From assembly GCA_942493095.1 (NCBI GenBank), contig OW818675.1, positions 1,020,001-1,052,000 of the forward strand: a stretch of 32,000 bases of DNA, read 5' to 3'. A program made the translations under genes and the position numbers. Positions 10,866 through 31,235 of the stretch are shown in pieces (the first letter of the stretch is position 1; each line of letters opens with the position of its first letter). The DNA is from Candidatus Electronema halotolerans (GTDB taxonomy: Bacteria; Desulfobacterota; Desulfobulbia; Desulfobulbales; Desulfobulbaceae). The notes below the pieces were generated by a model. It did not search any database and was not told where the DNA came from. It saw nothing but the letters and a program-made list of their open reading frames with translations.

Positions 10866-12707
10866 ATGCACGCGCCAATGGCCCCACTCAGGCACTCTGT
10901 CCATTTTCTGCTTAAACTGTCCCTGCCCGTTGCCGGACTGCTGCTGGCCAGCAGCGGCTGCGCGGAAAACAACTCATCAGCCGCGCCAGTCCGCCCAGCT
11001 GTGGCCGCTTCTTCTGCTCCGGCTCCGGCAGAGGCCTTGTTTGATCAAAAGCAGGACAGTGATCACGGGTGCAGCTATTTTTATTTTCTCTGGGGCCGTC
11101 ACGCTGAATTGGAAAGCAAATACGACGCAGCCTTGGAGGCGTATGAAAAGGCCCTGATCTGCGACCCTGACGCGAATTTTGTCATCAGCAAGCTGCCTGC
11201 CCTGCTGGTGCGGATGAACCGCCGGGACGAGGCTGCGGCCCGCCTGCGGGACTATCTGCGCCGCCACCCGAAAGAAGCCGAGCCAAGAATGCAGCTTGCC
11301 AAACTGCTGATTGATGCGGGCAAGTTCCAGGAGGCTGCTGATCAATACCGCCAGGCGCATGAGCTGAATCCCAAGGAAACCGCGCCACTCCTCCTCCTCA
11401 GCGAGCTGCATCTTTCGGAAAACAAACCTGAAGAAGCCAAAGCCGCCTTGGAGGAAGTGTTGGCCGCAGACAGCCGCTCCTATCCAGCCCATCTGCTGCT
11501 GGCCCGTCTTCTTGCCGCGCAGGGGGAGCTGGCGCAGGCTGTGGAGCATTATCAGCAGGCTGTCAGTCTCAATGCCTCGGAAGGGCTGCAATTGGAACTG
11601 GCCGAGGTCCTGATTGAGCAGAAAAAATATGCGCAGGCCGCCAGCATCTACAAGGAGCTGCTCAAGCAGGATGAAGAGAACGAGGAGGCGCGGATCGGCC
11701 TGATTCACACCTGCCTGCTCCAGAACAACGAACGCCAGGCAATGGCGGAGCTGAAGCGGCTCAATGACCTGACCGGCAATCCTGAGCAGGCTGAACTGAC
11801 CGTGGCCAAGCTCTACATCCGCTGGGAGGAATACAGCAAAGCCATCACCCTGCTGCACGAGATTCTGAACAAGGAGAAAGATATTTCCGAAGCCCGCTAT
11901 CTGCTTGGCGCGCTGCAAATGCAGGAGAAGCAATATCAAGAGGCCTTGCAGACCTTGGCGCAGATCGACCCGGAGGCGGATGAGCACGAGGATGCGCTGA
12001 TCCTGCAAGTGCGGGTGCTCAAGGAGCTGGGCCAGGAGGACGAGGCGGCCCGGCGGCTGGAGGCGGCGTTGAGGAAAGACTGTCAGCTCAGTCCTGAAGT
12101 CTGGCTGCTGCTGACCAGCATCTATCAGGCGGCAGAGCAGGATGCGGCCTGCCGCAAGACCTTTGCCCGCGCTCTGGAAAATTATCCTGACAATGAGCAG
12201 CTGCTCTATGATTACGGTCTTTTTCTCAATGAATCCGGCAGAAAAAAACAGGCCTTGGCCATCATGAACAAACTGCTGCAGCTCAATCCTGATCATGCGG
12301 GCGCATTGAATTATATTGGCTACACCTGGGCTGAGAGCAAGACAAATTTGAGCAAGGCCTTTCTCTATTTGACCCGCGCTGGCGAGCTGAAGCCGGACAA
12401 TCCCTCCATTCATGACAGTCTGGGCTGGGTCTATTACCAGATGGGCAGTCTGGACAATGCCTTGCGCACCTTGCAGGAAGCAGCGGCAATGGCCCCGGAT
12501 GATCCTGCGGTTCACGAGCATCTGGCTGAGGCCCAGGCTGCTGCCGGACAGCGGGCAGTGGCGGAAAAGGCGTGGCGCAAGGCCTTGGAGCTGTACAGCA
12601 CAGAGGCGGCTGCGGCAATGAGCAAGAGAAAACAGGAACGGGCTGAGAACGGCATCAGGCGGGTGAAGGAAAAACTGGCCCTGCTGGATGCAAAGGAGAA
12701 ACAATGA
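10866..12707 (+). CDS. TPR-repeat lipoprotein
   Basis: 613 aa. Signal and lipobox-like LLLASSGC. Many 34-aa TPR-like units follow (for example ALEAYEKALICDPDA, AADQYRQAHELNPKE, ALRTLQEAAAMAPDD). Confidence 0.8.
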   Translation: MHAPMAPLRHSVHFLLKLSLPVAGLLLASSGCAENNSSAAPVRPAVAASSAPAPAEALFDQKQDSDHGCSYFYFLWGRHAELESKYDAALEAYEKALICDPDANFVISKLPALLVRMNRRDEAAARLRDYLRRHPKEAEPRMQLAKLLIDAGKFQEAADQYRQAHELNPKETAPLLLLSELHLSENKPEEAKAALEEVLAADSRSYPAHLLLARLLAAQGELAQAVEHYQQAVSLNASEGLQLELAEVLIEQKKYAQAASIYKELLKQDEENEEARIGLIHTCLLQNNERQAMAELKRLNDLTGNPEQAELTVAKLYIRWEEYSKAITLLHEILNKEKDISEARYLLGALQMQEKQYQEALQTLAQIDPEADEHEDALILQVRVLKELGQEDEAARRLEAALRKDCQLSPEVWLLLTSIYQAAEQDAACRKTFARALENYPDNEQLLYDYGLFLNESGRKKQALAIMNKLLQLNPDHAGALNYIGYTWAESKTNLSKAFLYLTRAGELKPDNPSIHDSLGWVYYQMGSLDNALRTLQEAAAMAPDDPAVHEHLAEAQAAAGQRAVAEKAWRKALELYSTEAAAAMSKRKQERAENGIRRVKEKLALLDAKEKQ

Positions 12708-20886: not shown

Positions 20887-22617
20887 ATGAGCAGCAAGGC
20901 TAAATTCATCCGGGAGCTGGCTCCGCAGCAGAATACGGGCGAGCAGCTGCGCCTGCACATCCTCTGGCTGCTGCTGATCCGCATTCTGCTCTTCACCCTG
21001 CTGATTGCCGTCACTGTGGTGCTGCAAAAAAAAGGCGGCGACATCATCATCCTGCCGCCGCCCGCAGTGACGATGGCCTTTGTCGGGGTGGTCTTTGTCT
21101 ATTCCATCGGCTCGGCAGGTCTGCTCCAGAACATGATCCGGCATCTGACCCGCTTTGGTCTGATTCAGCTCCTTTCTGATGCCGTCTTCGCCGCCCTCTT
21201 GGTCGCAGGCACTGGCTGCAGCCAGTCGATTTTCACGCCAGTGTTCATTTTTCCTGTGATCGCAGGGGGCATGACCCTGAACCGCACTGGCGGCCTGATC
21301 GCGGCGGCGGCAGCCTCCCTGCTCTACGGCGGCATTCTGATCAGCGAATATCTCGGTTATATTCCCCAGTTTTATGCCCAGACCCGCTATGTGCCGCCGA
21401 CCGATTACCTTACCTTGACCAATGTTTATACGGTCTATGGAATCACTTTTTTCACCATTGGCTTTCTCAGCAGCCTGCTGGCCGGACGGCTGCGGCGGAC
21501 TGAAGAGGCGCTTTCGCAGACCTCGGTCCAGTTTGACCGGCTCAATCAGCTCTACAAACAGGTTTTTGACGACATCAGCACCGGCATTGTCACGGTTGAC
21601 GGACGCAACCGGGTGACCTCCTGCAACCCGGCTTTTGCCCGGATCAGCGGCTATGCTGCCGCAGAGATCATCGGACTGTCTTTCAGCTCCTTCTTTCCCG
21701 CCGCCATGCTGACTGAGACGGATCAAAGCAGGCAGGTGGCGGATCTGGCCAAAAAAGACGGCGGAACAGTGCGGGCTAGGCACACCTTTGCCCGGCTCAA
21801 TTTGCCTCATGATCCGGCAGTGGATGATCCAAGCGATGCCCAGTGCAAGGTGATCACAGTGCAGGACATCAGCCAGCTCGAACAGATGGAGCGGCAGATG
21901 CGGGCAGCGGAAAAGATGGCCGCCATCGGCGAACTGAGCGCGGCCATTGCCCATGACTTCCGCAATCCGATTGCCGCCATTTCCGGCTCGGCCCAGCTCC
22001 TGAAAAACATTCATGCCGCAGACAGCAGCCCTGACCCGGCCAGCCGGGCCAACCGCCATCTGACTGAGATCATTCTCCGGGAAACCACCCGGATGGAAAA
22101 GACCATCACAGACTTTCTCCAGTTTGCCCGGCCCGCAGACCTCAGTCCTGAATGGTTTGATCTCAGGCGGCTGGCTGAGGAGACCATTCTCCAAGTCAAA
22201 GACCGGGACTCCTGCCCGCTGGAAGCAATGATTGAGACTGATATCACCGAGCATCTGGACTGCTGGGCTGACCGGCAGGCCGTGCAGGCGCTCTTGGCTC
22301 ATCTCTTAGAAAACAGCTGCGCGGCGGCGGCCAAGACTGCGGCCTGGCCGGTGCTGATTCAAGCCCGCGAGCAGCGGACAGGGGAACGCAACTGCATCTG
22401 CATTGCCGTGCTCGACCAAGGCCCCGGCATTGCCGCCAATATCCGCGAGATGATTTTCATCCCCTTCTTTTCAACCAAGTCCAACTGCGCCGGGCTGGGG
22501 CTGGCAATAGTCAAGCAGATCGCGGAGCAGCACGGCGGCACGGTCAAGCTGCTGGAGGTGGAGCAAGGCTGCGCAATTGAGGCCTGCCTGCCGCTGCCTG
22601 CCCTGCCGGACGAATAG
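20887..22617 (+). CDS. Polytopic sensor histidine kinase (multi-TM, PAS, HisKA, HATPase; PilS-like architecture)
   Basis: About six hydrophobic helices lie in the first ~200 aa. PAS-like GIVTVDGRNRVTSCNPAFARISGY. H-box AAIAHDFRNPIAAISGSAQLL. G-boxes VLDQGPGI and GLGLAIVKQIAEQHGG. Confidence 0.85.
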   Translation: MSSKAKFIRELAPQQNTGEQLRLHILWLLLIRILLFTLLIAVTVVLQKKGGDIIILPPPAVTMAFVGVVFVYSIGSAGLLQNMIRHLTRFGLIQLLSDAVFAALLVAGTGCSQSIFTPVFIFPVIAGGMTLNRTGGLIAAAAASLLYGGILISEYLGYIPQFYAQTRYVPPTDYLTLTNVYTVYGITFFTIGFLSSLLAGRLRRTEEALSQTSVQFDRLNQLYKQVFDDISTGIVTVDGRNRVTSCNPAFARISGYAAAEIIGLSFSSFFPAAMLTETDQSRQVADLAKKDGGTVRARHTFARLNLPHDPAVDDPSDAQCKVITVQDISQLEQMERQMRAAEKMAAIGELSAAIAHDFRNPIAAISGSAQLLKNIHAADSSPDPASRANRHLTEIILRETTRMEKTITDFLQFARPADLSPEWFDLRRLAEETILQVKDRDSCPLEAMIETDITEHLDCWADRQAVQALLAHLLENSCAAAAKTAAWPVLIQAREQRTGERNCICIAVLDQGPGIAANIREMIFIPFFSTKSNCAGLGLAIVKQIAEQHGGTVKLLEVEQGCAIEACLPLPALPDE

Positions 22618-22774
22618 CTGGCTTCCTTGCATCATCCCATCACTGGTTTTCCTGTTGCGCATTGCCGGACAGCGCAGTAAAGAGAGATGTCAGAAGGCGG
22701 CAGAAAGGAGGAGGGATGCTGCCGCTTGGACATCAACAGGGACAGGGTCATGGACGCTGCCCCGAAGGGGAAAC

Positions 22775-23839
22775 ATGATGACATCTGAAGAGCTGCTCAA
22801 GAAAATTCAAAAGGCTGCGGACAGCAAGGTGGCCCGCTTCAACCTCATCGGCGCCCGGCTGACCGAGCTGCCGCCCGCGCTTTTTGAGCTGACCTGGCTG
22901 GAGGAGCTGAACCTGCGTGGCAACTGCCTGACCGAGCTGCCGCCGGAGATCGCCCGGCTGACCCAGCTGCGCGCTCTCAACTTGGGCGGCAACAGCCTGA
23001 GCTGTTTTCCTGAGCAGATTGCCAGCCTGAGCTGCTTGGAGGAACTGTACCTGCCCAACAACGGCCTGACCGAGCTGCCGCCAGCCATTGGCCAGCTCAC
23101 CAGTCTGACCGAGCTGAACCTGAGCGGCAATAGTCTGACCGAGCTGCCGCCCGAAATCGGGCGGCTGACCCAGCTGCGCACACTTTTGTGCAATGGCAAC
23201 CGCCTGACCTGCCTGCCGCCCGCGCTCTTCCAGCTCACCAGCTTGGAGGAGCTGAACGTGGACAGCAACCGTCTCGGCACTCTGCCGCCAGAAATCGGCC
23301 AGCTTGCCAGCCTGACTGAGCTGTCCCTTCTTGACAACAACTTGCGCAGTCTGCCGCCGGAAATCGGCCAGTTGCGCAGCCTGACCCACATCTATCTGGG
23401 CGGCAACCATCTGCGCGGTCTGCCGCTGGAAATCACCCGGCTGGCCGGTCTGCAAGTCCTTTGCATAGGCAACAACAACCTGACCGAGCTGCCGCCGGAA
23501 ATCTGCCAGCTCTCCGGGTTGACTGAGCTGAACCTGCACAGCAACCATCTCAGCACCTTGCCGCCGGAAATCGCCCGCCTGACCAGCTTGGAGTCAATCT
23601 GCCTGTACGGCAACGAGTTGGACTCGGTCTCACCCGTCCTTCTGCGGCTGCCCTGCCTGATTGAACTGAATCTGCACAGCAACCATCTCAGCAGCCTGCC
23701 GCCGGAGATCATCCAGCTCAGGAGCCTGGCCGAGCTGATGCTGGACAACAACCCGCTGGTCTCGCCGCCGCTGGAGATTGCCGAGCAAGGCATTGAGGCG
23801 GTGCGGGAGTACTTCGCAGAGGCTGAGGCAACAGCATAG
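22775..23839 (+). CDS. Stand-alone leucine-rich repeat protein (14 x 23-aa LRR)
   Basis: 354 aa from ATG 22775 (GAAGGGGA upstream). There are 14 units of the type LxELxLxxNxLTELPPEIgqLtx. It ends NPLVSPPLEIAEQGIEAVREYF. ORF-track start 22577 overlaps the kinase gene. Confidence 0.9.
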   Translation: MMTSEELLKKIQKAADSKVARFNLIGARLTELPPALFELTWLEELNLRGNCLTELPPEIARLTQLRALNLGGNSLSCFPEQIASLSCLEELYLPNNGLTELPPAIGQLTSLTELNLSGNSLTELPPEIGRLTQLRTLLCNGNRLTCLPPALFQLTSLEELNVDSNRLGTLPPEIGQLASLTELSLLDNNLRSLPPEIGQLRSLTHIYLGGNHLRGLPLEITRLAGLQVLCIGNNNLTELPPEICQLSGLTELNLHSNHLSTLPPEIARLTSLESICLYGNELDSVSPVLLRLPCLIELNLHSNHLSSLPPEIIQLRSLAELMLDNNPLVSPPLEIAEQGIEAVREYFAEAEATA

Positions 23840-23859
23840 CCAAGGCTTGGCCGCCGTGC

Positions 23860-23894
23860 CCGCCCCAAGAGGAGGCACTTTTCTTTTGGGGCGG
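23860..23894 (+). promoter_or_regulatory. Intercistronic stem-loop that sequesters an AGGAGG element
   Basis: CCGCCCCAAGAG (23860-23871) pairs with CTTTTGGGGCGG (23883-23894) for about 12 bp including one G-U. AGGAGG spans the 5' arm and the loop. There is no 3' T-run, so it is not a canonical terminator. Confidence 0.5.
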
Positions 23895-23968
23895 CAGAAG
23901 CCTGAGCAAGAAGGCATTGTTCCGGCACCGGCAGGGGCTGCGCGGTTCCAGCAAGTGCGGCGGCTTCT

Positions 23969-25246
23969 GTGCTGAAGATTGCTCTGCCGGCAATTTTGGC
24001 GCAAAAGAATGCAGGCCCTGCTCCAGAGCCACATTGGCGGACAGCTCAAGCGCTGGCTGTAAATTTAGATAATTCTACTTGGCTGCCTCAACTTGCTGCG
24101 GATGGTGGAGGCAACGCACTTGCAGCATGGCCACAAACAGGTGGCTTTTACAGCCGTCGTTATCAGGTTCGCACCGGCTGGCTGGGCGCGGAATACGCAG
24201 GAGGAGGAGGCAAGGAACTACAGATAGCAATGAACTCCGACGGCAAAGCAGTTGCTGTCTGGACGAAATATGATGGAGAAACTGATGAGGCGTATATTTA
24301 TGCCCAGCTCTACACAACAGGTTCTGGCTGGGCTGAAGCAGCGCTGATTGGCAGCAGCGAGATGCCAACGATGAATCCTGTTGCTGCGATGGATTCATCT
24401 GGCAATGTTCTGGCTGTTTGGACAGAAGGCGGCAGGCCGTTCACCAATCTTTGCTCAAGTCGCTATGAAATTAGCAGCAACAGTTGGACAAGTCCACTAC
24501 AGGAACATTACGGTTCAGATGTGACATATCCTGTTCTGGGCATGGATGCTGCTGGCAATGCTGTTCTTGCTTGGCGGCAGCGGGGAGTCAACACCTATCA
24601 TGCCTTTGCCAGACGCTATGAGATTGGTACTGGCTGGGGAAGTCCTGAGCTAATTGAGCAAGACAGCGGCTCCGTGGAAGTGACAACCATAGAGTCTCCG
24701 CGAATTTCTGTCAATGCTGTAGGTGATGCAGTTGCGGTTTGGCAGCAGTCTGGTGAAAATTGGGGAACATGGACGAATAGATATGAAGCAGGCAGCGGCT
24801 GGGGTGCTGCGCAGCTTTTGGCCGACAATACCGGCGCATCTGATATTGCTCTTGATGCGGATGGTAATGCCGTGGCAGTCTGGCAGCAATCGGATGGAAT
24901 CCGCACAAATATCTGGGCCAGCCGCTACACAGTCAGCAGCGGCTGGGGAAGTGCCGAGCTGATTGAGACAAATGACAGCGGCGATGCCCAGCGTCCAAAA
25001 ATCGCTGTGGATGAAGACGGCAACGCTGTTGCTGTCTGGCAGCAGTCTGACGGGACGCACACGCAAATTTGGGCCAACCGCTATGCAGTTGGCAGCGGCT
25101 GGGGCGCAGCTCAGAGCATTGAGACAGAAAACAGCGATGATGCGGACGGGCCGCGGCTTGTCATGTCGGCAACAGGCAAGGCTGTTGCTATTTGGCGGCA
25201 GTTTGATGGAACGCAGTACAGCATCTGGGCGAATCGCTTTGAATAA
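23969..25246 (+). CDS. Repeat protein of unknown family: 8 x ~45-aa units (GNAVAVWQQSDG...IWANRY..GSGWG.A..IE), probably a beta-propeller
   Basis: 425-aa ORF with strong internal periodicity at both protein and DNA level. No signal peptide is visible. The start is uncertain: GTG 23969 has no good SD, and the first in-frame ATG is 86 codons in. Confidence 0.7.
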   Translation: MLKIALPAILAQKNAGPAPEPHWRTAQALAVNLDNSTWLPQLAADGGGNALAAWPQTGGFYSRRYQVRTGWLGAEYAGGGGKELQIAMNSDGKAVAVWTKYDGETDEAYIYAQLYTTGSGWAEAALIGSSEMPTMNPVAAMDSSGNVLAVWTEGGRPFTNLCSSRYEISSNSWTSPLQEHYGSDVTYPVLGMDAAGNAVLAWRQRGVNTYHAFARRYEIGTGWGSPELIEQDSGSVEVTTIESPRISVNAVGDAVAVWQQSGENWGTWTNRYEAGSGWGAAQLLADNTGASDIALDADGNAVAVWQQSDGIRTNIWASRYTVSSGWGSAELIETNDSGDAQRPKIAVDEDGNAVAVWQQSDGTHTQIWANRYAVGSGWGAAQSIETENSDDADGPRLVMSATGKAVAIWRQFDGTQYSIWANRFE

Positions 25247-25261
25247 AAGGAAAAAAGACTG

Positions 25262-26584
25262 ATGAGCAGCCGAATAAGCATCTGGGAAGCCAAGAATCAG
25301 CTTGCCTTCAACGAGCCGTTGGAGCCGGACGACCCTCTTTTTGTTGATACTGCCAAGGCGCGGGGCGATTTCAGTCGCGAGCGGCTTTACCGGCAGCTCA
25401 ATGTCGATAAGCAGGGCATTGCCCACAAGCCGCCTATCAAGCAGTACATCCTTCTCACTGGTCATCGGGGCTGCGGCAAGAGCACTGAGCTGCGCAAGAT
25501 GGCCAAGTATCTGCATCACCCAGACCGCTACTATGTCCTGCGTCTTGACTGCTTGGAAAAGTTAGACATCAACAATCTGAAATATTCGGATGTGCTGCTT
25601 GCCTTAGCTGCGGCCCTCTTTGCCCGGCTGGAAGAAGAGGGCGGGATTGAAATGGAGCAGGTCCATCTGAGCCGCTTGGAGAACTGGTTCAAGGAGCGGG
25701 TGGAAGTGCATAGTCAACTTAAGCAGTTTGCTGCTGAGGTCAAGGCTGGTGCCAAGGCTCAGGCTGGACTGTCTTGGTTGAGCTGGCTCTATGGCGAAGC
25801 GACCAGCAAGCTGGGTATTGATTCCAGCTATCGCGAGGAGTTGCGCTTAGTTGTGCGCAATAACTTCAGCGAGTTTGCTGAAGCATTTAACCAGTTCATC
25901 CGAGCCAGCGAAGATAAAATTCGAGCGGCGGGCAAGGGCCAGCGCATTCTCTTCACCGTGGATGGGACAGACCGCCTCAACAGCGAGGACGCGCACAAGT
26001 TTTTTGTCGAAGATGTTCACCAGCTCACCCAGATCAGCGGCTTGTTCATCTACTGCACCCCTATCCACCTGCTCCATCAGGACAATTGCCTGAGTGCCAA
26101 CTTCACCGGGACAGTACGCCTGCCCATGCTCAAAATTCGGGAGCGCGATGACCAGAAGGTGCCAAAAAATTACCGGGTCATTCAACGCTTGGCTCTGCTG
26201 CGGGTGCCAGAATATCTCTTTGATGACATCACCACGCTGGAATATTTGATTCAGTACAGCGGCGGCCACTTGCGCGATTTGATTCGTTTGCTCAACATTG
26301 CCGTCAATATGGCTGAAGAGGAGCGCATTGATCGGATAGCAGCGGAAAAAGCGGTCAAGCAGGTGGCCAACGAGTACCGCCGTTTCATCAACAGCGCAGA
26401 CTATGCCCGCTTAGTGCAAATTGATCTCCACCCGGATGCGCCGGATGACTTCACAGACGAGCAAAGCGCAGCGATGCTCTACAATTTGATTCTCCTCGAA
26501 TACGACAATTATTTCTGGAAGAGCCATCCCGTAATCACGACCTTGCCCGGCTATCAGAAAGCCTATCAGCAGGTGATAAGCTGA
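25262..26584 (+). CDS. P-loop NTPase of the AAA+/STAND (ORC-Cdc6 / ATPase_2-like) type
   Basis: Walker A LLTGHRGCGKST (nt 25460-25486). Walker B RILFTVDGTDRL. Sensor-2-like SGGHLRDLIRLLN followed by a helical, winged-helix-like C-terminus. It starts 15 nt after the upstream gene. Confidence 0.75.
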   Translation: MSSRISIWEAKNQLAFNEPLEPDDPLFVDTAKARGDFSRERLYRQLNVDKQGIAHKPPIKQYILLTGHRGCGKSTELRKMAKYLHHPDRYYVLRLDCLEKLDINNLKYSDVLLALAAALFARLEEEGGIEMEQVHLSRLENWFKERVEVHSQLKQFAAEVKAGAKAQAGLSWLSWLYGEATSKLGIDSSYREELRLVVRNNFSEFAEAFNQFIRASEDKIRAAGKGQRILFTVDGTDRLNSEDAHKFFVEDVHQLTQISGLFIYCTPIHLLHQDNCLSANFTGTVRLPMLKIRERDDQKVPKNYRVIQRLALLRVPEYLFDDITTLEYLIQYSGGHLRDLIRLLNIAVNMAEEERIDRIAAEKAVKQVANEYRRFINSADYARLVQIDLHPDAPDDFTDEQSAAMLYNLILLEYDNYFWKSHPVITTLPGYQKAYQQVIS

Positions 26585-26587
26585 TTC

Positions 26588-28072
26588 ATGGCTGAGGACA
26601 AGGATTGGCGGCCCGCCGCAGAGCATTCCGGCTGCCTGCTCCGCCTTCAGAGACTGCTGGAGCGGGCGCAGGGGTTCCGCTTGCTCATTCTCTCGCACAA
26701 CCGGCCAAAGTACCGCGACAATTTAATTGCCCGGCTCCGGGAAGCGCAGCCGGACAGCGCAGTGCTTGATCTCAGGCAGCTCGGCAGCTTGGCCGCTTTT
26801 GAGGACGCGCTGGCCCAACAGCAAGTACGGCAGGTGCATCTGCTCAATCTGGAAAGCCTGCGCAAGGAACAGCGGCAGGATTTCTTCAAAGGACTCAACT
26901 ACCACCGCGAGCACATTGCCCGCACCTGCGGCGGCTTTCTGCTTGTCTGGCTGCCAGAGCATCTGATTGCCAAGCTGGCGGTTGAGGCGGCGGATTTCTG
27001 GGCATGGCGGGAGCAGGTATTTGATTTTATTTTGCCGAAAGAGCCGGAGAAGAGGCGTTATACTTCCTTGGTTGACACTGCAAATCTTGATAGGTCCGCG
27101 AAGCAGAAAAGAATTCATGAAATTAAGGAGTTTCTGTCTAACTCTTCTGACCAAGCAAGCCTTACCAATGCAGACCTTAAAGAAGAATTGGGCATCCTGT
27201 TCAAGTCGATTGGCGAATATGAACAGGCAGAATATATGATGAAAGAGGCAATAAAAGAATATACTGAGTTGGATGAGGCGGAATCTTGCGCCAAGACTAA
27301 ATTTGTTTTAGCCAGCTTGCTGACAGCCAAAGGTGATTATGAGCAGGCTATGAAACTGCTTAAAGAACAGATTCTGCCAGTGCTTCGTCAATTAAAAAAA
27401 GATGTTGAAGAGGCTTTGGCAATGGGACAGGTAGCAGACATCCTTGAGACAAGAGGAAAACTGGATGAAGCCTTGGAAATTAGAAAAAAGAAGGAACTCC
27501 CTGTTTACAAACGTTTTGGGCTTGAGAGGCTGAAAGCCTTTGCGATGGGAAAAATAGCAGATATTTTAGTAGCTCGTGGCGAATTTGATAAAGCTCTCAG
27601 GATATGGAGACAAGAAGGCCTCCCAATTTATGAGCGTCTTGGAGATGTGCGGGAGAAAGCTGTAACTATGGGAAGAATAGCAGATGTCCTTCAGTTTCGC
27701 GGCCAATTTGATGAAGCCCTTAAAATTCGAGAACAAGAAGAACTGCCGGTTTATGAACGTCTTGGAGATATACGAGAGCAAGCTGTAACTAAAGGAAAGA
27801 TCGCAGATATTCTTTGGTTCTGTGGTCACGCTGATGAAGCTCTTAGAATTAGAGAACAGGAAGTTTTACCAGTTTTTGAGCATCTTGGAGATACGCAAAA
27901 CTTAATGTTTGGTCGAGTCAATTTCGCAATTTTACTTCATGATATGGATACAATTGCCAATAGAGTTAAAATTGACAAGCTGCTGCGCCTTGCCTTGGCT
28001 GATGCCAAGCGGCTCAAACTGCCGAGAGAGATTGAATGGATTGAGAGCATCATGCAAAAGGTGGCAGCGTAG
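26588..28072 (+). CDS. TPR-repeat protein with an N-terminal alpha/beta domain lacking a Walker A
   Basis: It starts 3 nt after the ATPase stop. The C-terminal half has 5-6 units of ~40 aa (A..MG.IADIL..RG..DEAL.IR..E.LPVYERLGD.RE). The N-terminal ~150 aa (FRLLILSHNRPKYRDNLIARL...VHLLNLES...GFLLVWLPE) have alternating strand and helix character but no GxxxxGK[ST]. Confidence 0.8.
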   Translation: MAEDKDWRPAAEHSGCLLRLQRLLERAQGFRLLILSHNRPKYRDNLIARLREAQPDSAVLDLRQLGSLAAFEDALAQQQVRQVHLLNLESLRKEQRQDFFKGLNYHREHIARTCGGFLLVWLPEHLIAKLAVEAADFWAWREQVFDFILPKEPEKRRYTSLVDTANLDRSAKQKRIHEIKEFLSNSSDQASLTNADLKEELGILFKSIGEYEQAEYMMKEAIKEYTELDEAESCAKTKFVLASLLTAKGDYEQAMKLLKEQILPVLRQLKKDVEEALAMGQVADILETRGKLDEALEIRKKKELPVYKRFGLERLKAFAMGKIADILVARGEFDKALRIWRQEGLPIYERLGDVREKAVTMGRIADVLQFRGQFDEALKIREQEELPVYERLGDIREQAVTKGKIADILWFCGHADEALRIREQEVLPVFEHLGDTQNLMFGRVNFAILLHDMDTIANRVKIDKLLRLALADAKRLKLPREIEWIESIMQKVAA

Positions 28073-28080
28073 TGCAAACC

Positions 28081-29115
28081 ATGACACCGTGGCAGGAACA
28101 ACTGCAACATGCTATCACGGACAGCGCAGGACTGCGCCGCGCCTTGGGCTGCGAAGTCCCAGAGGCGGTCATCGCCCGCTATCCGATGCGGATTTCTCCC
28201 TATTATCTGGATTTGATCCGGCAGGCGGGCGAGCCGCTCTTCCGGCAGGCTGTGCCTGATCTGCGCGAGTTGGAAGACCCGGTCGGCATGGATGATCCGC
28301 TCGGCGAAGAAAACCTGAGTCCGGTTCCTAATCTGGTGCATAAATACCCGGACCGGGTGCTGCTCTTGGTCAGCGGCCAATGCGCCATGTACTGCCGCTT
28401 CTGCACCCGCAAGCGCAAGGTCGGCCAAGCGGCTCTGCGCTTCAGCGAGGAACATTTTGCCGCTGCGTTGGACTACCTGCGTCGCACTCCGACGGTGCGG
28501 GAAGTGCTGATCTCCGGCGGCGACCCGCTGCTGCTGCCGGACGAGCGGCTGGAAGAGATTCTCCGGCGGCTGCGGGAAGTGAACAGCATTGAGGTCATCC
28601 GCATTGGCACCCGCACACCCTGCACCCTGCCGATGCGCATCACGCCGGAGCTGTGCGCCATGCTGCGCCAGTTTCATCCGCTGTACCTCAACACCCATTT
28701 CAACCACCCGGCAGAACTGACTGCGGCAGCGGCCCGCGCCTGCACCCAGCTTGCGGACGCAGGCATTCCGCTCGGCTGCCAGACCGTGCTGCTCAAAGGG
28801 GTGAACGACTCTGCCGAGGTGCTGCGGGAACTGTTCTGCGGGCTGCTGCGTCTGCGGGTCAGGCCCTACTATCTCATGCAGGCTGATCTGACCAAGGGCA
28901 CCAGCCATTTCCGCACCCCGGTCAAGGCTGGCCTTGCGATCATGCGCCAGATGATCGGCACGGTTTCCGGCATGGCGGTGCCCAAGTTTGTCTTGGATGC
29001 GCCGGGCGGCAAGGGCAAGATTCCTCTCAGCCCGGATTACATCATGGCCATGCAGGACGGACGGCTCGACTTTGTCAACTATCAGGGGCTGCCCTGTTCG
29101 TATCCTTTGGAATAA
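28081..29115 (+). CDS. KamA-family radical SAM aminomutase (lysine 2,3-aminomutase / EpmB-like)
   Basis: Radical SAM cluster motif CAMYCRFCTRKRKVG. ISGGDPLLL, NTHFNHP, MQADLTKGTSHFR and VLDAPGGKGKIPL match KamA-family motifs. ATG 28081 is preferred. GTG 28072 overlaps the TPR stop codon. Confidence 0.85.
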   Translation: MTPWQEQLQHAITDSAGLRRALGCEVPEAVIARYPMRISPYYLDLIRQAGEPLFRQAVPDLRELEDPVGMDDPLGEENLSPVPNLVHKYPDRVLLLVSGQCAMYCRFCTRKRKVGQAALRFSEEHFAAALDYLRRTPTVREVLISGGDPLLLPDERLEEILRRLREVNSIEVIRIGTRTPCTLPMRITPELCAMLRQFHPLYLNTHFNHPAELTAAAARACTQLADAGIPLGCQTVLLKGVNDSAEVLRELFCGLLRLRVRPYYLMQADLTKGTSHFRTPVKAGLAIMRQMIGTVSGMAVPKFVLDAPGGKGKIPLSPDYIMAMQDGRLDFVNYQGLPCSYPLE

Positions 29116-29118
29116 CAG

Positions 29119-30228
29119 ATGAACCCGCCGCATCCTGTCCGCATCGGCTGCTGCATCACGCCGCACGGTTTTGGCCACGCCGCCCGCGCCTGCGCCGTGC
29201 TGGAAGCCTTGGCCGCCCGCCTGCCGATTCATTGTCAGATTGTCAGCACGGTTCCAGAGTGGTTTTTCCGGCAATCGCTGACCGCGCCCTTCACCCTCCA
29301 TCCGCTGCTGACCGATGTTGGCCTGGCCCAGCATGATTCCTTGCGGGAAGACATTGATCTGACGCTGGCCCGGCTGGATGCCTTGTATCCGCTCCGGCCT
29401 GCATTGCTCCGGCAGACTGCGGCCCTGCTCGCAGACTGCCGCCTGATTCTCTGCGATATTGCCCCGCTTGGCATTGCCGCTGCTGAACTGGCCCGCAAGG
29501 ATTTGGGTTCAACCGTGCAGTCCGTGCTGCTGGAAAATTTCACGTGGGACTGGATTTATCAGGGCTATGCGGAACAGCGGCCTGCTTTGCGTCGGCATAT
29601 TGACTGCTTGCGCGAGCTGTTCAGCCGGGCGGATCATCATCTTCAGGCCGAGCCAGTCTGCGCGCCCAGCAAAGCTGACTTGCGCATTCCGCCCATAGCC
29701 CGCTCACTGCGGCAGGAACGAAAAGCTGTCCGCAAGCAACTGGGCCTGCCGGAGACCGTCAAACTGGTCTTGGTGACTATGGGTGGAATTGCTGGCACTG
29801 CCCTGCCGCTCAAGCGAATGGCGGCAATGGCGCAGGACTGCTCGTTTCTGCTGGCTGGACAGCCAGTTGACGCGCTGACCGGGCAGGGAAATCTGTATTT
29901 TTTGCCGCAGAACAGCGGCTTCTGGCATCCAGACCTGATTGCGGCCTGCGATGCGGTGGTGGGAAAAATCGGTTATTCAACCTTGGCGGAAGCCTTTCAG
30001 GCGGGAATTCCCTACGGCGCAGTCTGCCGCCCGCGCTTCCGGGAATCAGAGGTGCTGGCCGCCTTTGCAGAACAGGCAATGCCCGCTCTGCTGATCAGCG
30101 AGGAGCAGTTCCAGCACAGCGGCTGGCTCAACCTGCTGCCGGAACTGCTTGCCCTCCGGCCCAAAAACACGCCGCCGGAAAACGGCGCACCAGCGGCGGC
30201 AGAGTTTCTACGCAGACTCCTGCTCTGA
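29119..30228 (+). CDS. GT-B-fold glycosyltransferase-like protein (MurG/GT28-like; resembles the arabinokinase N-terminal domain type)
   Basis: It starts 3 nt after the KamA-like stop. The N-terminal ITPHGFGHAARACAVLEAL resembles the GHGFGHATR motif of that GT-like family as I remember it. C-terminal VVGKIGYSTLAEAFQAGIP resembles the GT-B nucleotide-sugar binding region. Confidence 0.5.
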   Translation: MNPPHPVRIGCCITPHGFGHAARACAVLEALAARLPIHCQIVSTVPEWFFRQSLTAPFTLHPLLTDVGLAQHDSLREDIDLTLARLDALYPLRPALLRQTAALLADCRLILCDIAPLGIAAAELARKDLGSTVQSVLLENFTWDWIYQGYAEQRPALRRHIDCLRELFSRADHHLQAEPVCAPSKADLRIPPIARSLRQERKAVRKQLGLPETVKLVLVTMGGIAGTALPLKRMAAMAQDCSFLLAGQPVDALTGQGNLYFLPQNSGFWHPDLIAACDAVVGKIGYSTLAEAFQAGIPYGAVCRPRFRESEVLAAFAEQAMPALLISEEQFQHSGWLNLLPELLALRPKNTPPENGAPAAAEFLRRLLL

Positions 30229-30411
30229 GCCAGTCTTTTTCAGACTGCGGCGGGCCGTCTCCTCGTTGATCACCCGGATGCGCTCGGCCAGCTCCTCGCT
30301 GACCACCATCCGGCCCTCCAGCACACAGCCTTTGCGGGCTGGAACGCATTCGCCGGAGAGCCTTTTGCAGCGGTTGGCGGCGATATCGTAATTTTTGCAG
30401 TGAAAAGTCAT
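30208..30411 (-). CDS. Small 4-Cys protein of unknown function
   Basis: 67 aa with C5-x9-C15-x6-C22-x6-C29 and then a charged helix. GGAG lies 10 nt before the ATG. It sits 24 nt downstream of the CZB gene. Its 3' end overlaps the GT-like gene convergently by 21 nt. Confidence 0.5.
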   Translation of the reverse strand: MTFHCKNYDIAANRCKRLSGECVPARKGCVLEGRMVVSEELAERIRVINEETARRSLKKTGSEQESA

Positions 30412-30435: not shown

Positions 30436-30807
30436 TCAGCTCTTCTTTGCCTCCCGCTCCATTTTTTCCAGTATCTCAATGAAGCGGTTGCAGGTGTCTT
30501 TGAAATTTTGCAGCATCTTTTTGCCATCCTCGCTCATGCGCTGTTCTTTGGAGGTGTTCAGCATCTTTTTAATGCTTTCATGCACATCTTGATGGAGTTT
30601 TTCCATCGCATGCACCTCTGGGAAGGCGGCCAAGTGCTGCATTCCTTCTTGATCATAAAGCCATTTGCCGAAATCACAGCGGGTATGATCCGGCACATCG
30701 CTGGGGTTCAGGTTCTCCACCCCATAGAAAAAATCCACTAACTTGGACTGCCAGTTGAGATGAGCAATAATGGCAGCCTGAATGTCCATGGTGTCTAAGG
30801 TGCTCAT
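30436..30807 (-). CDS. Stand-alone chemoreceptor zinc-binding (CZB) domain protein
   Basis: 123 aa with the full CZB ligand pattern: AHLNW (HxxW), RCDFGKWLY (CxxGxW) and LHQDVH (HxxxH). GAGGAGAAAAC precedes the ATG. Confidence 0.8.
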   Translation of the reverse strand: MSTLDTMDIQAAIIAHLNWQSKLVDFFYGVENLNPSDVPDHTRCDFGKWLYDQEGMQHLAAFPEVHAMEKLHQDVHESIKKMLNTSKEQRMSEDGKKMLQNFKDTCNRFIEILEKMEREAKKS

Positions 30808-30938: not shown

Positions 30939-31235
30939 TCACCCCCCTGCCTGTTCGGCGACTTTTTTTTCCAGATGTTCCAGCAGTTCAACTAACTGGT
31001 CGCATTCCTTCCTGAACCGGTCCATGACTTCCTGACCAGCAGTGCCCATTCGCATGTCTTTGGGCATGGCCACCAGCTCTTTGATGCCGTCATGCACATT
31101 TTCATGCAAGGTCTCCAAGGTGCTGATTTCTGGAAAATGAGCAAGTTCTTTCAGTCCCTTGGAGTAGAGCCACTTGCCAAAATCACAGCTTGTGTGATCC
31201 GACACATCTGAAGCGTTCAGCTCTTCCACGCCATA
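30939..31235 (-). pseudogene. 5'-truncated CZB-domain paralogue
   Basis: YGVEELNASDVSDHTSCDFGKWLY...LHENVHDG is collinear with residues ~28-123 of the intact neighbour. It lacks the N-terminal HxxW ligand helix. Homology stops at 31235, 2 nt from the edge of the MITE-like inverted repeat, and an in-frame TGA lies at 31245-31247. Confidence 0.65.

Follow-up and report, generated by a model that had tools for sequence, protein, structure and literature searches.

An ATPase gene and a gene for a degenerate AAA+ core with TPR-like repeats form a conserved pair in Candidatus Electronema halotolerans and other bacteria

We analyzed a 32,000-nucleotide (nt) stretch of the genome of the cable bacterium Candidatus Electronema halotolerans (contig OW818675.1, positions 1,020,001 to 1,052,000), hereafter the window, to whose own numbering all coordinates refer unless another locus is named. 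Four consecutive genes on its plus strand, between positions 22775 and 28072, encode a leucine-rich repeat (LRR) protein, an eight-repeat protein, an ATPase and a protein with tetratricopeptide repeat (TPR)-like units (genes 1 to 4, respectively). An initial annotation had read them as a single module, and the calling of open reading frames (ORFs) reproduced the four genes on the same strand together with the gaps that it had reported between them (129, 15 and 3 nt). Our main finding is that the conserved unit is smaller: it is a tight, co-inherited pair formed by the ATPase gene and the gene that follows it, which encodes a dead AAA+ core continued by the TPR-like array. This pair is real and uncharacterized, and it belongs to no named family. 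Genes 1 and 2, as well as a KamA-family radical SAM gene and a GT-like gene located downstream, are neighbors specific to this cable-bacterium lineage. Regarding function, we lean, with moderate confidence, towards the pair being a self-contained two-gene NTPase switch.

A scan of one genome per species for the ATPase gave at least 543 species-level loci, from which 80 were fetched as a locus sample. ORFs were called in all 80 and queried with six window proteins using BLASTP, and the count of downstream partners was restricted to the 74 loci with at least 600 nt of sequence beyond the ATPase gene. A gene 4 homologue, with an alignment starting within the first 40 residues of gene 4, was encoded directly downstream of the ATPase and on the same strand in 69 of these 74 loci, bearing out the initial proposal that the NTPase switch and the TPR sensor reside on separate polypeptides. 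When the N-terminal domain of gene 4 (N-domain) was searched for with a hidden Markov model, matches were found in 73 of the 80 loci, and the seven misses corresponded to four contig ends, two Electrothrix loci with the ATPase alone and one Methylovulum locus (L035). The 3-nt spacing of genes 3 and 4 in the window has its counterpart in the start/stop overlaps that are common at other loci, and many loci show the pair bracketed by opposite-strand genes on both sides. Pairwise divergence of the ATPases and of the partner N-domains is correlated (r = 0.80, a value reached by 0 of 999 permutations in a Mantel test), and the surroundings of the pair change in nearly every genome. Given the partner linkage and these differing flanks, the conserved unit is therefore two genes and not four.

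About 0.3% of species representatives carry the pair, whose proteins share 35–50% identity across phyla. Carriers include Desulfobulbales, Thiotrichales, Competibacteraceae, Accumulibacter, Burkholderiales, Syntrophobacterales, Spirochaetia, Verrucomicrobia, Acidobacteriota, Myxococcota, Entotheonella and Saprospiraceae, among others. This patchy distribution looks like the product of horizontal spread. Some loci depart from the usual arrangement. Downstream of their ATPase genes, the two Candidatus Electrothrix loci encode an exported trypsin-like protease in the case of L004 and, in that of L041, PlsY together with a small protein whose N-terminus is lipoprotein-like. At the Methylovulum locus, from a metagenome-assembled genome (MAG; L035:7956-11248), the ATPase runs in frame into an AAA_15/AAA_21 (OLD/AbiEii-like) domain, and a gene for a DUF3226 protein comes next, where the TPR partner would be expected; either a PARIS/OLD-like module has been exchanged for the partner or the arrangement is an assembly artefact. 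Both the ATPase and its partner are split into several short ORFs in a MAG of an uncultured gammaproteobacterium (L080), which is either a decayed cassette or a poor assembly. We also looked for Rosetta-stone fusions of the two proteins and found none among the 150 best N-domain representatives. The long ATPase ORFs of L040 and L042 were artefacts of ORF calling, and that of L035 was a different fusion or a read-through.

The first gene of the pair, gene 3, encodes a protein that passes a single Pfam model, AAA_16 (35 bits, cut-off 32.6). Its scores fell below the cut-offs of the ORC-CDC6-like (21.6 bits vs 27), NACHT and Sll1717-family P-loop ATPase models, the last of these (NCBIfam NF047389) with 33.1 bits against a cut-off of 75. 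Searches against PDB sequences gave no match. More than 500 homologues of around 440 residues were found in many phyla, and the ATPase homologues are stand-alone proteins of 430–520 residues. The AlphaFold2 model of gene 3 has a predicted local distance difference test (pLDDT) score of 90. Its best Foldseek matches in the PDB were AAA+ proteins that have a lid and a winged helix, namely Cdc6, ORC subunits, SSO1545, CED-4, TnsC and RdrA, with query-normalized template-modelling (TM) scores between 0.35 and 0.42; the top one, Cdc6 (1fnn), reached only 0.35–0.40. With TM scores in just this range, no close structure therefore exists.

The three motifs that had been picked out in gene 3 from the sequence, GHRGCGKST, ILFTVDGTD and the sensor-2-like SGGHLRDLIRLL, all lie where they had been placed, and their conservation was judged on 21 diverse homologues (Table 1). 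Between Walker A and Walker B lies a long helical insert that is well conserved. The SGGHLRDLIRLL segment sits within the lid helix of the AlphaFold2 model, and the consensus of the family, SGGHPRDLLRLL, can be read in two ways, as the GxP motif of STAND proteins and as the sensor-2 arginine of the ORC/Cdc6 type (GG..R); the window copy has L where the consensus has P. The C-terminus of the model forms a helix-strand-strand region, where H422 and its surroundings possibly correspond to the conserved winged-helix histidine that contacts the nucleotide in STAND proteins and belongs to the MHD motif in others of them, a predicted equivalence. The GxP-like motif of the family consensus and the C-terminal winged-helix region fit the original description of gene 3 as a STAND-like ATPase. 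As regards the features that define STAND proteins (Leipe, Koonin & Aravind 2004), the ASCE/AAA+-type P-loop core with Walker A and Walker B is present in gene 3, according to the homologue alignment and the AlphaFold2 model. Sensor repeats and an effector or adaptor in the same chain are absent from it, as the protein has 440 residues without further domains and the TPRs are encoded by gene 4.

The N-domain of gene 4 was modelled with a pLDDT of around 93 over residues 10–150. Foldseek matched it to ORC2 (1w5t, E 1.8e-4), Skd3, NSF/Sec18, Hda, Yta7 and two chains of the E. coli clamp loader (8giy_A and 1jr3_D), mostly with query-normalized TM scores of 0.43–0.58. HNRPKYRD occupies the place of Walker A and HLLNLE that of Walker B. 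With both Walker motifs lost, the gene 4 core is predicted to be unable to bind nucleotide in the canonical way. Gene 4 had been described as an α/β N-domain with no P-loop plus five or six TPR-like units of around 40 residues; residues 1–150 are indeed α/β and about six units of 41 residues follow, while the part that had gone unrecognized is that the α/β domain is a degenerate AAA+ core.

Invariance in the partner family was judged on 49 full-length partners and 38 N-domains, and the invariant columns are N104, R107, W121, D136, W138, W140 and R141. For D136, W138 and W140 this holds in the two alignments alike, whereas R141 never changes among the full-length partners and has a conservation of at least 90% among the N-domains. 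The stretch APDLWAWR, which ends with this arginine, falls at what would be, in AAA+ architecture, the place of the box VII arginine finger. Judging solely from its position in the predicted fold, R141 is a candidate arginine finger acting in trans. The equivalent place in the ATPase, residue 286, is variable (R, K or V among the 21 homologues).

No model of Pfam, NCBIfam, PADLOC or PHROG matches the N-domain. Its family comprises 473 clusters at 50% identity, as obtained by an exhaustive HMMER search; this was needed, as word-indexed homologue searches with the N-domain gave just 4 and 22 proteins. In all of the 150 listed representatives, proteins of 77 to 776 residues, the domain sits at the N-terminus. 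We considered that the N-domain could be a recent dead paralogue of gene 3, and rejected it: hhalign gave a probability of 14% with a misregistered alignment, that is, no detectable paralogy.

The rest of gene 4 carries approximately six TPR-like units of the TPR_12 type (Pfam), with the consensus unit LPVYERLGDVRSRAVTLGKIADILQARGELDEALRIRREEE. The period of exactly 41 residues was found in 107 adjacent repeat pairs over 67 proteins. Using a strict motif, we counted 0 to 13 units per partner protein, with a median of 2, although this motif undercounts, finding 4 of the approximately six units of gene 4. Variability is focused at positions 6, 10, 12, 13, 17, 19, 25, 26, 29, 38 and 41 of the unit. 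High internal conservation of repeats with few variable positions resembles NLR-type sensors. Among the 49 partners, which reach 1174 residues, we found nothing beyond TPR-type families and no effector domain. The Pfam SNAP model matches 16 of them, probably through a resemblance common to TPRs in general. The repeat-coding part of gene 4 (27001-28000) has 42% G+C, compared with 55–62% in the adjoining kilobases. Elsewhere in the window (10866-12707), amid housekeeping genes, lies a separate 613-residue protein built from 34-residue TPRs of the classical kind (TPR_19 and TPR_16, among others) that is unrelated to the repeats of gene 4.

Table 1. Positions in the window of the conserved pair, its sequence motifs and the two upstream genes
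Feature	Position	Strand	Remarks
Gene 3, active AAA+ NTPase, AAA_16 / ORC-Cdc6 / STAND-like	25262..26584	+	440 residues; first gene of the conserved pair
Walker A, GHRGCGKST	25460..25486	+	G67, H68, G70, G72, K73, S74 and T75 invariant in 21 homologues
Walker B, ILFTVDGTDR	25946..25975	+	D234, G235, D237 and R238 invariant in 21 homologues
Lid-helix motif, SGGHLRDLIRLL	26258..26293	+	Family consensus as given in the text; G334, G335 and R338 invariant
YFWKSHPV, C-terminal winged-helix region	26510..26533	+	W419, H422 and P423 invariant
Gene 4, inactive AAA+ core then 41-residue TPR-like repeats	26588..28072	+	494 residues; second gene of the conserved pair
N-domain of gene 4, residues 1–150, five-stranded α/β AAA+-like core without Walker A or B	26588..27037	+	AlphaFold2, Foldseek
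FRLLILSHNRPKYRDN, strand β1 and loop at the Walker A place	26675..26722	+	No glycine-rich loop, no GK[ST]; R43 nearly invariant
AADFWAWR, end of helix α4 into β5	26987..27010	+	Family consensus APDLWAWR; conserved columns, AlphaFold2 secondary structure
Five 41-residue TPR-like units (LPVYERLGD…GKIADIL…RG..DEAL.IR..E)	27374..27988	+	Strongly conserved internally; repeat analysis
Gene 1, stand-alone LRR protein with Roco-type C-cap	22775..23839	+	354 residues from an internal ATG (MMTSEELL…); lineage-specific neighbor, outside the conserved pair
Gene 2, eight-repeat protein	23969..25246	+	425 residues; lineage-specific neighbor

The switch that we propose would work as follows. Gene 3 would be a live NTPase, with a nucleotide-binding core, a lid and a winged helix, and with no sensor or effector domain of its own. 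Gene 4 would supply the missing sensor, a TPR-like array mounted on an AAA+ core that lost Walker A and Walker B. Within a hetero-oligomer, the dead core of gene 4 would dock onto its live counterpart in gene 3 and contribute R141 in trans to the gene 3 site. Ligand bound by the TPR array would then gate the binding or hydrolysis of ATP, as well as assembly. The models of Pfam, NCBIfam and PADLOC revealed no nuclease, TIR, protease or pore domain in the products of genes 1 to 4, so the initial annotation was right in seeing no recognizable effector. Because the cassette encodes no enzymatic effector, the output would be the assembly itself or unlinked partners encoded elsewhere.

As for the process that such a switch would serve, a sensing role of the conflict or immune type is the one that we tentatively put first, at somewhat less than even confidence. 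It seems the likeliest because the distribution of the pair is patchy and apparently horizontal, and because many carriers are filamentous or aggregate-forming. The carriers behind this possible trend are cable bacteria, Thiothrix/Thiolinea, Sphaerotilus, Entotheonella, Saprospiraceae, Myxococcota, Accumulibacter and Competibacter. We also counted in favor of this role that the pair is so rare among species and yet found in many phyla at the identities given above, that its context differs nearly everywhere, that the repeats are highly conserved internally, and that the L035 partner appears to be replaced by an OLD/PARIS-like module (AAA_15/21 plus DUF3226). As the initial annotation had anticipated for a new system, PADLOC-DB 2.0.0, which includes the Avs systems, made no assignment: generic TPR model aside, the best E-values of the window proteins were 0.002–0.006, and among the 21 ATPase homologues the best was 5e-5, confined to three members. 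In its fullest form, the idea is that the pair is an undescribed, effector-less NLR-like immune or conflict switch, in which a trans arginine completes the site of a separate NTPase, ligand capture leads to assembly, the output is the oligomer or the effectors that it recruits, and horizontal spread took place mainly among filamentous or aggregate-forming bacteria. We regard this complete picture as speculative and, taken as a whole, rather unlikely.

Several observations weigh against these proposals. The initial annotation had suggested looking for siting in defence islands or other variable regions, and we found no defence-island signal: in a Pfam scan, the 120 nearest neighbors were assorted housekeeping genes, with only two DNA methylases among them and no enrichment. 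Homologues were absent from 72,556 plasmids, from 50,697 phages and from viral contigs. The lack of a PADLOC match likewise counts against a conflict role. For a sensor of invaders, the two proteins and the repeat consensus show unusually high conservation. The Electrothrix loci L004 and L041 keep an ATPase that is around 70% identical without the partner gene. Regarding the mechanism, the arginine-finger role of R141 comes solely from its position in a predicted fold, the complex and the stimulation of the ATPase are predictions, and the Foldseek scores are modest (TM 0.35–0.58).

Part of this evidence suits a cellular ATPase-adaptor module, either an assembly/disassembly chaperone with a TPR adaptor, in the manner of NSF/SNAP, or a signal-transducing regulator of the MalT/AfsR kind acting via its winged helix. 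The housekeeping flanks, the lack of copies in mobile elements, phages or plasmids in our searches, and the strong conservation of both proteins and of the repeat consensus would all be expected of it, as would the absence of a toxic effector. The matches of the Pfam SNAP model add to these, although they are probably generic. A core function is hard to square, however, with a presence in so small a share of species representatives scattered over many phyla at 35–50% identity. The genomic context, moreover, differs in nearly every genome, and no conserved client or target gene is linked to the pair. On balance, we view a cellular module as a possible explanation, to which we would give clearly less than even confidence.

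The model of the initial annotation, in which the LRR, eight-repeat propeller, ATPase and TPR proteins make up one split NLR-like sensing complex, appears highly improbable to us. The co-orientation of the four genes and their short gaps speak for it. The module had been made to depend on conserved synteny in other genomes, and none was found: the LRR gene had no BLASTP match in the 80 loci and the eight-repeat gene had one, in L001. Close relatives are available in three contigs (L082, L001 and L081), with ATPases 82–89% identical to that of the window. In L082, a σ54 response regulator and a histidine kinase, as in the window, are followed by an LRR protein 91% identical to gene 1 and then by the ATPase, with no eight-repeat gene. 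L001, from Candidatus Electronema, carries a gene 2 homologue (65% identity, L001:195-1559) located 15 nt upstream of the ATPase, the same gap as in the window, and the contig ends before any LRR gene would be visible. The third relative, L081, has the ATPase with the highest identity (89%), preceded by an unrelated gene of 260 codons and followed by the TPR partner and a KamA-family gene, with no GT-like gene. The adjacency of the LRR gene in L082 and of the repeat gene in L001 thus shows an association within a narrow lineage. Taken together, the relatives present every combination, with only the LRR in L082, only the repeat protein in L001 as far as the contig reaches, and neither in L081, which goes against the LRR and repeat arrays being the sensors of a complex. 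Such variation in the upstream slot fits shared ancestry with differential loss, and is not evidence of function.

The two upstream genes themselves largely conform to how they had been described. Gene 1 contains 13 canonical LxxLxLxxNxL units with an exact period of 23 residues (Pfam LRR_8/LRR_4, E ~1e-41). Of the bare 14-unit array that had been reported, these 13 stand, and the fourteenth is an N-terminal cap unit. The Roco-type cap proposed for gene 1 was borne out by alignment: the tail formed by the last 29 residues, NPLVSPPLEIAEQGIEAVREYF, matches the stretch of Chlorobium tepidum Roco in which the LRR domain ends, just before Roc (residues 416-444 in 5il7 and 439-466 in 6hlu). Roco proteins continue from the LRR into Roc and COR domains; the gene 1 ORF stops 3 residues past the aligned cap segment. 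Gene 2 has eight G[NKD]AxAxW motifs spaced by around 50 residues, and it belongs, as had been said, to no family that we could recognize, with all its matches below threshold (BNR_4 with 20.6 bits and PDIAV_lipo with 24 bits).

The gene 2 homologue of L001 begins with a typical signal peptide, MFPQVLSFRFSVKKTVFILLCCAVPASNA, and the gene 2 family is therefore probably exported. In the window, the positions 23906-23968, in frame upstream of the GTG start of gene 2, encode …CAVPASAAAS, the end of a signal peptide, without a start codon; compared with L001:195-300, the n- and h-regions are gone, so that the window copy appears to be truncated at its 5′ end, as far as can be judged from the two sequences. 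Since the family is probably exported, gene 2 is not likely to take part in an NTPase complex of the cytoplasm. A further point against one split complex is a stable 15-bp hairpin between genes 1 and 2, at 23858-23896 (GCCCGCCCCAAGAGGAGG…UUCUUUUGGGGCGGC) in the 129-nt spacer, with no U-tract after it. For the spacer as a whole, the folding energy is −68 kcal/mol (z = −2.3). A scan for promoters and terminators from 22400 to 30400 gave no signal above shuffled controls.

Even less credible, to the point that we set it aside, is that the output of the system consists of the KamA-family radical SAM protein and the GT-like protein, a pair that the initial annotation had offered as a possible output: neither gene was matched in any of the 80 loci by BLASTP, the GT-like gene is missing from L081, and the two do not co-occur with the pair outside its closest relatives. 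The radical SAM gene (28072-29115 in the window, L081:12820-13854) follows the pair only in these two places, and what favors its involvement is that its start is overlapped by the stop of gene 4 (1 nt in the window, 4 nt in L081). The protein passes only the generic KamA model TIGR00238 (290 bits, cut-off 199), and this family assignment is all that its sequence gives, as it lies below the cut-offs for the lysine, glutamate and arginine 2,3-aminomutases and for EpmB. The window and L081 have conserved synteny on the right-hand side. Both encode small proteins of the chemoreceptor zinc-binding (CZB) type, at 30436-30807 and 30939-31229 (minus strand) in the window and at L081:14108-14476; the L081 copy was assigned by a Pfam match, and visual inspection for the DFGKWLY motif was the basis for the two ORFs of the window. 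In L081, a SIR2_2-domain protein of 1265 residues (L081:18139-21323) is encoded around 5 kb downstream of the pair, and no counterpart of it was seen in the window.

If the pair works as a switch of the kind that we propose, STAND-like sensing and switching would be divisible between two proteins, with an eroded ATPase core as the coupling device and no built-in effector, and the known forms of bacterial NLR-like systems would be widened. The analysis also defines a domain family, that of the gene 4 N-domain, which Pfam, NCBIfam and PADLOC do not describe, and it corrects the four-gene reading, which would have pointed experiments at the wrong components. The compact two-gene unit is directly testable, as strains available in culture carry it: Sulfidibacter corallicola M133, Paraburkholderia tuberum STM678, Trinickia symbiotica JPY-345 and Sphaerotilus sulfidivorans D-501.

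We found no named equivalent of the pair in the literature, and the described systems that come near it share different parts of its organization. Roco and AP-GTPase LRR proteins touch only gene 1, whose repeats and C-cap align to the Chlorobium Roco LRR up to the Roc junction; unlike them, gene 1 ends after the cap without Roc, COR or effector, and it is unlinked to the pair outside the lineage. A nucleotide-blind AAA+ subunit that packs on an active one and supplies an arginine is found in the clamp loader (δ′) and in the inactive subunits of ORC, and ORC subunits and E. coli clamp-loader chains are among the Foldseek matches of the gene 4 N-domain. These are, however, replication proteins with lids and collar domains, and the likeness to the pair is one of fold and logic only.

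In Avs/AVAST and MalT-type STAND proteins, as in the pair, an ASCE/AAA+-like NTPase goes with a TPR array as presumed sensor, and a GxP-type lid and a winged helix may be common to them as well. There, sensor, switch and effector belong to one chain, whereas the TPRs of the pair are on a second protein with a dead AAA+ core and there is no effector; the Avs models of PADLOC did not match the pair. The BrxB/iSTAND modules of BREX and of the MoxR-vWA ternary systems have a compact inactive core of the STAND/ORC-Cdc6 type beside an active ATPase, a core in which both the Walker motifs and the C-terminal helical bundle are lost, and have been proposed to be sensors or regulators. Rapid evolution has been described for them, many have a β-sheet cap after strand 4, and they are part of larger systems with PglZ or MoxR-vWA (PMC12839542; PMC7159879). 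Common to both is the compact dead core encoded next to an active ATPase; judging by the published descriptions, what sets gene 4 apart is a well conserved domain, fused to TPRs and encoded in a two-gene unit.

Of the organizations described so far, the nearest is the two-gene operon of nSTAND2, where an active STAND is accompanied by an eroded STAND with TPRs that keeps an arginine finger (Kaur, Iyer, Burroughs & Aravind 2021, eLife 10:e70394, Fig. 6C; PMC8195603). For their pair, Kaur et al. proposed a gating logic based on the inactive partner (PMC8195603). We tried to identify our pair with nSTAND2 by running hhalign against the published alignment and discarded it, with a probability of 0.1% (E 0.65) for the gene 4 N-domain and of 0.3% for the ATPase profile. 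The inactive module of our pair consists of an α/β core of around 140 residues, without lid or winged helix, and the variable HEPN or GT4 effector that is fused to the inactive module in nSTAND2 is replaced here by TPR-type families only, as seen in the 49 partners. The layout, in contrast, matches: both are two-gene operons in which an active STAND-like winged-helix NTPase comes first and an eroded, TPR-bearing NTPase second, and our pair, like nSTAND2, seems to be mobile.

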